A stretch of DNA of 64,000 nt from Kiritimatiellia bacterium (GCA_017406465.1 JAFQYM010000004.1:10570-74569), one strand, 5' to 3'; counted from the first letter of the stretch, positions 62,942 to 63,314 are shown. The notes: a model not told the origin generated them from the letters alone. Numbers and translations are program-made.

Positions 62942-63101
62942 GCGGTCACGGTCGGGGCAACCGTGCTCGCCCTCGAGAAACGGCCGATTAGCGCGTCCTT
63001 GCAACCGCTCGGCGTATACATATACGCCATCGGGTCGCAGTCCTGCGCTACTCGTCTCGTTTTCGAGGGTTTCGCTCGGCTGCGGCCCCGACCGTGACCG
63101 C
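62942..63101. repeat. Long imperfect palindrome A (about 160 nt rod-like hairpin)
   Basis: There are four concentric helices:
- 17 bp perfect: 62942-62958 with 63085-63101.
- 7+5 bp: 62970-62982 with 63058-63069.
- 6 bp: 62989-62994 with 63045-63050.
- Apex GGCGTATA-CA-TATACGCC at 63011-63028. Confidence 0.85.
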
Positions 63102-63126
63102 GCATGGCATCCTCGGGCGCTGGGCA

Positions 63127-63314
63127 AACGGCGCATGCGTTCGTCTCTCGCTTCGGGGAAAAGCGCGACTCCTCCCGCGCACTGCATCCACCGTCCGCAG
63201 CGCGATACTTCGTCGGCGGAATACCGCCTTCTCGTCTCGCGCGCGTCCGTTGGCGCATCACGCGAACTGTCGTCGCGCCGTTCCCCTGCGCTCACTCCTT
63301 ACACATGCGCCGTT
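63127..63314. repeat. Long imperfect palindrome B (about 188 nt rod-like hairpin)
   Basis: There are three concentric helices:
- 11 bp: 63127-63137 with 63304-63314.
- 4+2+7 bp: 63155-63169 with 63272-63286.
- Apex GGCGG-AATA-CCGCC at 63215-63228. Confidence 0.8.

Follow-up and report, generated by a model that had tools for sequence, protein, structure and literature searches.

Two rod-like hairpins, A and B, that lie upstream of nusA in the 64,000-nucleotide stretch of DNA analysed here (the window) are very probably terminal modules of a strain-variable mobile islet. Both are modules of a dispersed composite repeat, L-A-B-C, of ~470-520 bp (~0.5 kb). Taken as a whole, the evidence is best explained by L-A-B-C being the structured terminal inverted repeat of a non-autonomous cassette element mobilised in trans, and we regard this explanation as probable.

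The helices that a preliminary description of this DNA had assigned to A and B were all found in place. Module A (62942-63101) is a 160-nt rod hairpin of five stacked helices with the apex GGCGTATA-CA-TATACGCC, and a repeat finder returned its outer stem (62942-62958 / 63085-63101) as a perfect 17 bp. Module B (63122-63319) is a rod hairpin of ~190 nt with the apex GGCGG-UAUU-CCGCC; its outer stem (63122-63140 / 63301-63319) was returned as 19 nt with 89% complementarity, and the inner arms were recovered by the repeat finder as well. Both modules fold better on the minus strand, on which B contains 7-8 G·U pairs. When a 401-nt stretch was folded as RNA, two adjacent rods were obtained on either strand, at -206 kcal/mol (z-score -8.3) on the plus strand and -239 kcal/mol (z-score -12.4) on the minus strand, and none of 100 shuffles folded as well in either case. 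As described earlier, the region 62,870-63,420 is without plausible open reading frames, those found being Arg/Ser/Pro-rich and mutually overlapping. Neither hairpin is trailed by a T-run and therefore neither forms an intrinsic terminator, which disposes of the terminator reading proposed for them; no terminator-like site was detected on either strand of 62900-63420.

The pair is not a one-off, and its unit extends further than described earlier. It recurs in the same genome mostly as one unit, ~12 near-full-length times, and the unit also takes in L and C. Segment L (62900-62941, plus strand) is the outer terminal segment of the insert; its conserved terminus motif, ~TGCTGGTTTGCCTTCCAGTGTGCGG, continues into A and has 20 matches in the genome, always on the outer side of A. 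Module C (63317-63389, plus strand), 70 nt long, forms the inner part of the terminal repeat; it contains a short hairpin, located by the repeat finder (63351-63368 / 63374-63391), and lies on the cargo side of B in every case. A BLAST search of the A+B pair against the source assembly (G000; 3.5 Mb in 102 contigs, 83% complete) gave ~30 matches, of which 7 were near-full-length A+B copies with 85-92% identity and the rest were A-only or B-only; in all, ~12 composite copies of ~470 bp were found in the 3.5-Mb genome. A census by profile search counted 17 copies of A, ~16 of B and 23 of C in this genome, all genomes used here being MAGs, in which any copy number is a minimum and an absence carries little weight. 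Several copies are located at contig ends, where repeats that break assembly are expected. The copies within the genome are 85-92% identical to one another, so most of them are not recent.

The repeat is modular throughout. The arms of B come in three variants (B1, B1' and B2) that have the apex alone in common, and the mosaics seen include A, B or C on its own, L joined to B, and nested inserts. Sequence comparison revealed no relation between A and B, and the preliminary description rightly denied that they are copies of a single MITE, in that they are different modules; they are nevertheless modules of one composite mobile repeat. Like MITEs, A, B and C occur as many dispersed short non-coding units. 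In solo L-A-B-C units the C end carries nothing that resembles L, and the terminal inverted repeats of a MITE are in this respect missing: A and B are each whole palindromes, and an inverted-repeat relation exists only between two units that bracket cargo. Small hairpin-forming inserts with the shared sequence …GACCGCTTACGCGGCTCGGCCTTCGGCC… were observed nested in copies of A (G000:C15:14472-14587) and of B (G000:C93:324-397 and G000:C70 ~5900-5960), so a further small mobile hairpin appears to target the rods.

Convergent inverted pairs, L-A-B-C> … <C-B-A-L, were identified in 20 cases in the source genome and related loci, enclosing between 72 bp and 4.3 kb; an additional pair, ~9.6 kb apart, probably represents two separate ends. 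All follow the same orientation rule, with the L/A end toward core genes and the C end toward low-GC3 cargo, the GC3 of cargo genes being 0.47-0.68 compared to ~0.8 in the core genes flanking the A ends (genes of the related loci were called with a simple GC3-based caller). Pfam scans of cargo proteins revealed HepT and PIN toxins, a HigA-like HTH protein, an Mrr endonuclease, T5orf172/MUG113, ORF6N, FRG and DUF1648; other cargo includes an LRR protein, lipoproteins and membrane ORFans. No recombinase was found in these scans among the cargo proteins, and no transposase or recombinase consistently adjoined the islets. An autonomous element or insertion sequence with the same ends was absent from the source genome and from ~60 related loci, the absence being weak because the MAGs are incomplete. 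Directly outside the L end of one islet, on contig C43, a tRNA gene with anticodon CCG (Arg) was read by eye (G000:C43 ~51700-51790), and at the same site on a related IMG/VR contig (L112) a prophage-like segment adjoins an L-A-B-C islet.

Individual cassettes carry two further shared modules. A 5' promoter/leader module of ~130 nt, present in ~13 copies, precedes many unrelated cargo genes, and the 3' module D, present in 22-28 copies, directly follows a co-oriented low-GC3 gene each time; the cassettes therefore have common 5' and 3' non-coding ends. On the gene strand the promoter/leader module reads …TATAAT…AAAGAGAAACGCAAAAGNGGTGTTTCCCCATTTGATT; copies are located at L062 (G000:C15) 16058-16203 and 12068-12210 and at G000:C55:26632-26759, with a weak piece in the window at 34535-34583. 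In the window, the REP-like D (63395-63455, minus strand) forms the 3' end of the cargo gene, with a hairpin GGGG-CAGA-CCCC followed by …GAAACCGTTGTAAAA…, in which TAA is the stop codon of the gene. The D hairpin core GGGGACAGACCCC(A/G)CG(A/G)AA has 24 strict copies in the genome, and the conserved …GAACCGTTGTAA of D provides several unrelated cargo genes with their final codons (…EPL or …KPL) and their stop codon.

The islet of the window is ~2.1 kb long and lies between a gene X and the nusA promoter, in the order L-A-B-C, D, lipoprotein gene, C-B-A-L. Read along the minus strand, the order in the window is the cargo lipoprotein gene (64421-63420), D, C', B', A', L' and the nusA promoter, the hairpins thus being downstream of the minus-strand open reading frame that ends at 63420. 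This cargo gene, 63420-64000 in the window and continuing to 64421, encodes a 333-aa predicted lipoprotein (MTRICNAAVLVLCAGLLCVLLTGC…) that has no Pfam match, and its GC3 is 0.59 compared to ~0.8 in core genes. The second, inverted C-B-A copy (G000:C50:75088-75531) is located upstream of the cargo gene, at a contig end. Gene X is found in the source genome on contig C82, adjoining an L+A end; over 134 nt, the A copy there matches the one at the terminus of contig C50 without a difference.

The nusA gene (61461-62756, minus strand) has a promoter at 62862-62833 (minus strand; TTGACC-18-TATACT with a TG extension), which falls outside the repeat, in agreement with the earlier placement of the hairpins upstream of it. 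Between the promoter and the start codon, the nusA leader contains a terminator-like hairpin with a T-run (62803-62788, minus strand), which is possibly an attenuator of the nusA-infB operon; the leader around this hairpin is conserved in relatives, homology to their nusA loci reaching ~62865 and stopping there. The insert starts further upstream, at …CCAGTT|GTCCTG (62899|62900).

Alleles of this site were surveyed among metagenome contigs, of which 8 were returned by a scan with 25 nt of the nusA leader. Contigs L119 and L120, with 97.4-97.7% identity to the window, are empty, and their homology to the window stops at 62899. Contig L113 (96% identity) is empty as well, its homology stopping at 62894, within the last 5 bases before 62899. 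On the empty contigs gene X begins ~40 nt past the homology break, and the nusA promoter is joined directly to gene X, promoter and leader being intact. Contig L115 (94% identity) is occupied and has the order nusA - L-A-B-C - 713 nt - C-B-A-L - X, in which a DUF1648 cargo replaces the lipoprotein gene; contig L117 (93% identity) is occupied but has lost A and B on the nusA side. The presence of empty and differently loaded contigs demonstrates that the 2.1-kb islet is a within-species insertion/deletion polymorphism with cargo replacement. Between the occupied and empty alleles no clean direct repeat or target duplication was seen, and ~27 nt of the empty allele are replaced.

Cargo is also shared between species at different loci. 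The DUF1648 cassette of the metagenome contig L115 is identical at 163 of 165 positions to one at a MAG locus (L072) of another species and another genomic location, where the cassette is in an L-A-B-C islet beside queD-like genes. Similarly, the 112-aa zinc-ribbon cassette on contig C55 of the source genome is 109/112 identical in another species, in which it lies between different core genes. Orthologous sites carry different cargo across species at the tRNA-Arg/gspE site, the site between a 535-aa gene and dus, and the TonB-receptor site, and the gene upstream of nusA differs in every species compared. A search for empty sites in other species found none: the flanks of five islets of the source genome are never adjacent in congeners. 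The islets therefore coincide with synteny breaks, and may explain why such MAGs break at, and lose synteny at, these sites.

Covariation had been set beforehand as a check on the proposed structures and proved very strong in both hairpins. The alignment of A comprised 22 copies from the source genome and 8 congeners, and that of B comprised 18 copies covering all three arm variants. In A, 95.4% of cells were paired compared to 33-42% in slid controls, changes on both sides were observed in 39 of 53 pairs compared to 13-18 in the controls, and none of 500 shuffles reached the observed values. In B, 97.2% of cells were paired (25-46% in slid controls) and 26 of 44 pairs had changed on both sides (0-7 in the controls); on four of five measures the observed value was reached by 0/500 shuffles, and for the measure of further pair types by 261/500. 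The outer helix and helix 3 of A are hypervariable and always paired, nearly all changes in A leading from one Watson-Crick pair to another with very few wobble intermediates. In contrast to these helices, the internal loops of A are invariant and non-palindromic in all 22 copies (GCCGRGCGGA, CAGGAC/AAGGAC and GAGCACGGTTGCC), as is one G·U pair.

The two strands of the rods are not equivalent. Folding is without exception more stable on the strand that leads out of the islet in the 5'->3' direction, by 1-10 kcal/mol for the A copies of the source genome and by 5-36 kcal/mol for 38 distinct B copies from ~10 species, the B1 variant found in the window reaching ~15-36 kcal/mol. Cells with G·U outnumber those with A·C by 43 to 12 in A and by 54 to 5 in B. 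Together, the covariation, the invariant loops and the strand bias argue that the conserved form is a folded single strand of defined polarity and not a double-stranded palindrome. The islet ends are thus long hairpins under unusually clear structural selection.

That the islets are mobilised in trans by a mechanism acting at the DNA level stands, in our estimate, at close to an even chance or slightly below. A recognition role in DNA is favoured because both ends are conserved, the polarity is fixed, the loops are invariant, and near-identical cargo occurs at different loci. The hairpins would be selected as folded single strands, both islet ends would be needed, and A and B would most likely be structures for recognition or synapsis by an enzyme acting in trans. 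A candidate for this enzyme is a hairpin-specific HUH/RayT-like transposase or else a recombinase, which would move or exchange the islet as DNA. Of the candidate explanations in the preliminary description, folded recognition sites of this kind and a boundary or insulator are the two that the strong structural constraint and strand bias of both hairpins leave in play. With their invariant loops, the folded A and B offer a concrete substrate with which to look for the enzyme responsible for moving accessory genes in this little-studied phylum of the gut and rumen.

The strand bias would also be expected if the hairpins act in RNA, as a boundary of the islet. The hairpins in outgoing transcripts would then be 3'-end stabilisers, RNase-processing sites or read-through insulators that shield core genes such as nusA from islet transcription, a role of the kind played in mRNAs by REP, ERIC and Correia repeats; the spread of the hairpins would simply follow from that of the islets carrying them. 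Transcription leaving the islet always reads the better-folding strand, on which B keeps many G·U pairs (54 against 5 A·C). Cargo gene, D, C', B', A' and nusA share one orientation in the window, which would place the hairpins in the 3' UTR of the cargo gene, ahead of the nusA promoter. Set against this are the missing T-runs and the changes in A, which are nearly all full Watson-Crick swaps; moreover, a single-gene islet has only one end downstream of its cargo gene, yet both ends are equally conserved. We consider a role as RNA-level boundary rather unlikely.

The synteny breaks and the junctions admit an explanation that needs no dedicated enzyme, namely that the ~0.5-kb ends are enzyme-less relics that act as portable homology. 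They would provide handles for RecA-dependent recombination after DNA uptake, by which islet contents are swapped, deleted or inverted, and correction from arm to arm within each palindrome would mimic covariation. Recombination between repeats could yield both presence/absence and cargo swaps, and is compatible with islet flanks that are never adjacent in other species, with different cargo at orthologous loci, and with imprecise junctions at which no target-site duplication was seen; the double changes in A without wobble intermediates likewise fit arm-to-arm gene conversion. However, such conversion would erase the invariant non-palindromic loops and the invariant G·U pair of A, which are kept in 22 of 22 copies. 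The strong strand bias of B is unexpected for double-stranded homology, and the same cargo at unrelated loci still requires a first insertion event. Passive homology is an improbable account of the islet ends, more so than the RNA-level boundary.

A single-copy structured ncRNA gene of the 6S-like or long-hairpin kind, or a dedicated cis-regulator of nusA-infB, either of which would suit the very stable rod folds and the non-coding setting beside nusA, is scarcely credible given the lack of an Rfam match, dozens of copies dispersed over unrelated loci, and a location upstream of the nusA promoter in a stretch that is missing from three same-species contigs with intact promoter and leader. The scan with Rfam 15, including 6S, returned nothing relevant on either strand of 62000-64000, its sole match being a chance-level Atu_C3 inside nusA (14 bits, E = 4.7). 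The ncRNA proposal of the preliminary description thus fails on the point that it had itself named as counter-evidence, many dispersed copies indicating a mobile repeat. The narrower case of a dedicated cis-regulator of nusA is excluded, as the hairpins are upstream of the promoter and dispensable in conspecific strains. For annotation, the stretch is the end of a mobile repeat and not an sRNA or a nusA regulator.

Returning to mobilisation in trans, we examined candidate enzymes encoded in the source genome. Four RayT-like HUH genes are present (G000 C14, C18, C54 and C92), with HUH and Y…NPV motifs; in NCBIfam they come closest to the REP-associated tyrosine transposase NF047646, at 44-68 bits, under the cut-off of 80. 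Each of the genes is bracketed by short inverted hairpins, which have the D-type core or belong to two other types. The C92 gene (602-1531) is flanked by hairpins with the core GGGGACAGACCCCACGAA at G000:C92:543-561 and 1603-1621, in inverted orientation, and the same core forms the hairpin of D, which identifies D as REP-like and gives it a plausible RAYT partner. REPtrons have their repeats inverted around a RAYT gene, an arrangement that was not found for A or B. RayT was rejected as the direct partner of A and B, which flank none of the four genes, these genes carrying other flanking hairpins.

An integron was also rejected, no integrase being present: the best match to TIGR02249 scored 80 bits against a cut-off of 265, and recombinases of that kind are therefore Xer-type only. 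On inspection, GTTGT repeats in direct orientation and a hairpin of 4-8 bp were seen in D, but no inverted pair of the attC core sites RYYYAAC … GTTRRRY, and the ends of A and B read GCGG…CCGC. An IS110-family transposase gene (PF01548 + PF02371; G000:C32:57984-58988) was observed in a cargo islet, ~250 nt from D and C. IS110 elements target REP-type hairpins. As mobiliser of the islets, IS110 was dismissed on its weak co-occurrence with the repeat (7 of 14 repeat-positive versus 1 of 10 repeat-negative congeners) and on its context in relatives, which has no link to the repeat. The genome also contains a group II intron-type reverse transcriptase (…RPLGIPT…YADD…) in several copies (G000:C57:1-1400, C51:66500-68100 and C100:12800-13600).

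Known systems resemble the islets in part. Mobile insertion cassettes (MICs) and MITE-flanked units consist of transposase-free passenger genes between inverted repeats and are moved in trans (PMC3913671, PMC4337579). The islets have the same organisation, in that they are non-autonomous, have inverted ends around one or a few transposase-free passenger genes, are present or absent depending on the strain, and leave many solo or truncated ends. Unlike those of MICs, their ends are ~0.5 kb long and contain two rod hairpins of 160-190 nt and a third module, with covariation that keeps the structure; in addition, they match no known insertion sequence and no target-site duplication was seen. REP, BIME and REPIN sequences, which are paired with RAYT (TnpA-REP), are like the A/B repeat intergenic, modular and palindromic, and the likeness extends to their recognition as folded single strands in a strand-specific manner, as well as to the RayT-like genes of this genome and the hairpin core that D shares with the repeats flanking one of them. 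REPs, however, are short (~20-40 nt) imperfect palindromes arranged in mosaics, whereas A and B, which are mosaic too, measure 160-190 nt, being 4-8 times longer, occur in tens and not hundreds of copies, and have a fixed polarity toward cargo islets.

Longer palindromic repeats are known as well. ERIC/IRU, Correia (NEMIS) and pneumococcal BOX elements are imperfect palindromes of 100-200 nt that are co-transcribed with their neighbours and form long hairpins, BOX being modular and Correia elements having TA duplications and known terminal inverted repeats. In contrast to the islet ends, ERIC, Correia and BOX elements are short units scattered singly, without paired 0.5-kb ends around cargo. 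Single-stranded hairpins serve as recombination sites in integrons (attC/CALIN) and in the folded attP of CTX phage. A and B resemble attC and CTX attP in that structure is conserved over sequence, unpaired bases are conserved, and the cassettes are small and carry toxin-antitoxin genes or ORFans; that only one strand of attC and CTX attP is functional is a further likeness. Unlike integrons, the islets have no integrase and no R''/R' core sites, their repeats are inverted pairs at the islet ends and not direct copies after each cassette, and their cassettes carry a promoter module of their own.

The likeness to attC raises the question of whether L-A-B-C is a new class of folded single-strand recombination site, at which a hairpin-specific enzyme encoded elsewhere, perhaps RayT-like HUH or Xer-type, would recognise the conserved A/B loops on the outward-running strand at both ends and would excise, insert or exchange cassettes. 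We consider this joint claim unlikely, slightly more so than the RNA-level boundary. Were it true, rumen Kiritimatiellia would capture and shuffle defence and toxin-antitoxin genes in an integron-like manner with a system that lacks an integron integrase and has paired inverted ends in place of attC arrays, each cassette having a shared promoter module and a REP-like 3' module.

The distribution of the repeat is narrow. BLAST searches detected it in 15 of 25 sampled congeners; 16 genomes representing other genera of the order gave no match. When a covariance model of A was applied, 7 of the 12 congeners sampled had matches (up to 13 copies), single copies turned up in three sister genera within the family, and the order's remaining families had none in the genomes sampled. 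The B-apex motif was found in 45 stretches among 185,579 species genomes, all of them rumen MAGs labelled uncultured Lentisphaerae or Kiritimatiellia, and also in one IMG/VR contig. BLAST searches of plasmid and phage collections returned nothing similar to the repeat, and a literature search found no account of such repeats in Kiritimatiellia. The islets thus form a lineage-restricted family of small cargo islets with toxin-antitoxin, restriction and surface-protein genes, documented here with an empty-site control.

Other repeats were observed in the same genome. The window contains at 7601-7695 another dispersed rod-hairpin repeat of ~90 nt, GGCGGTGGAGCGAAGGTCC…GGCGTATTCGCC…GGCCACCGCC, which has ~35 genome copies and an apex similar to those of A and B. 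In addition, tandem heptamer (GTTGAAA/G) arrays at G000:C11:8063-8165 and G000:C47:1614-1682 gave ~40-46 self-matches in the genome.
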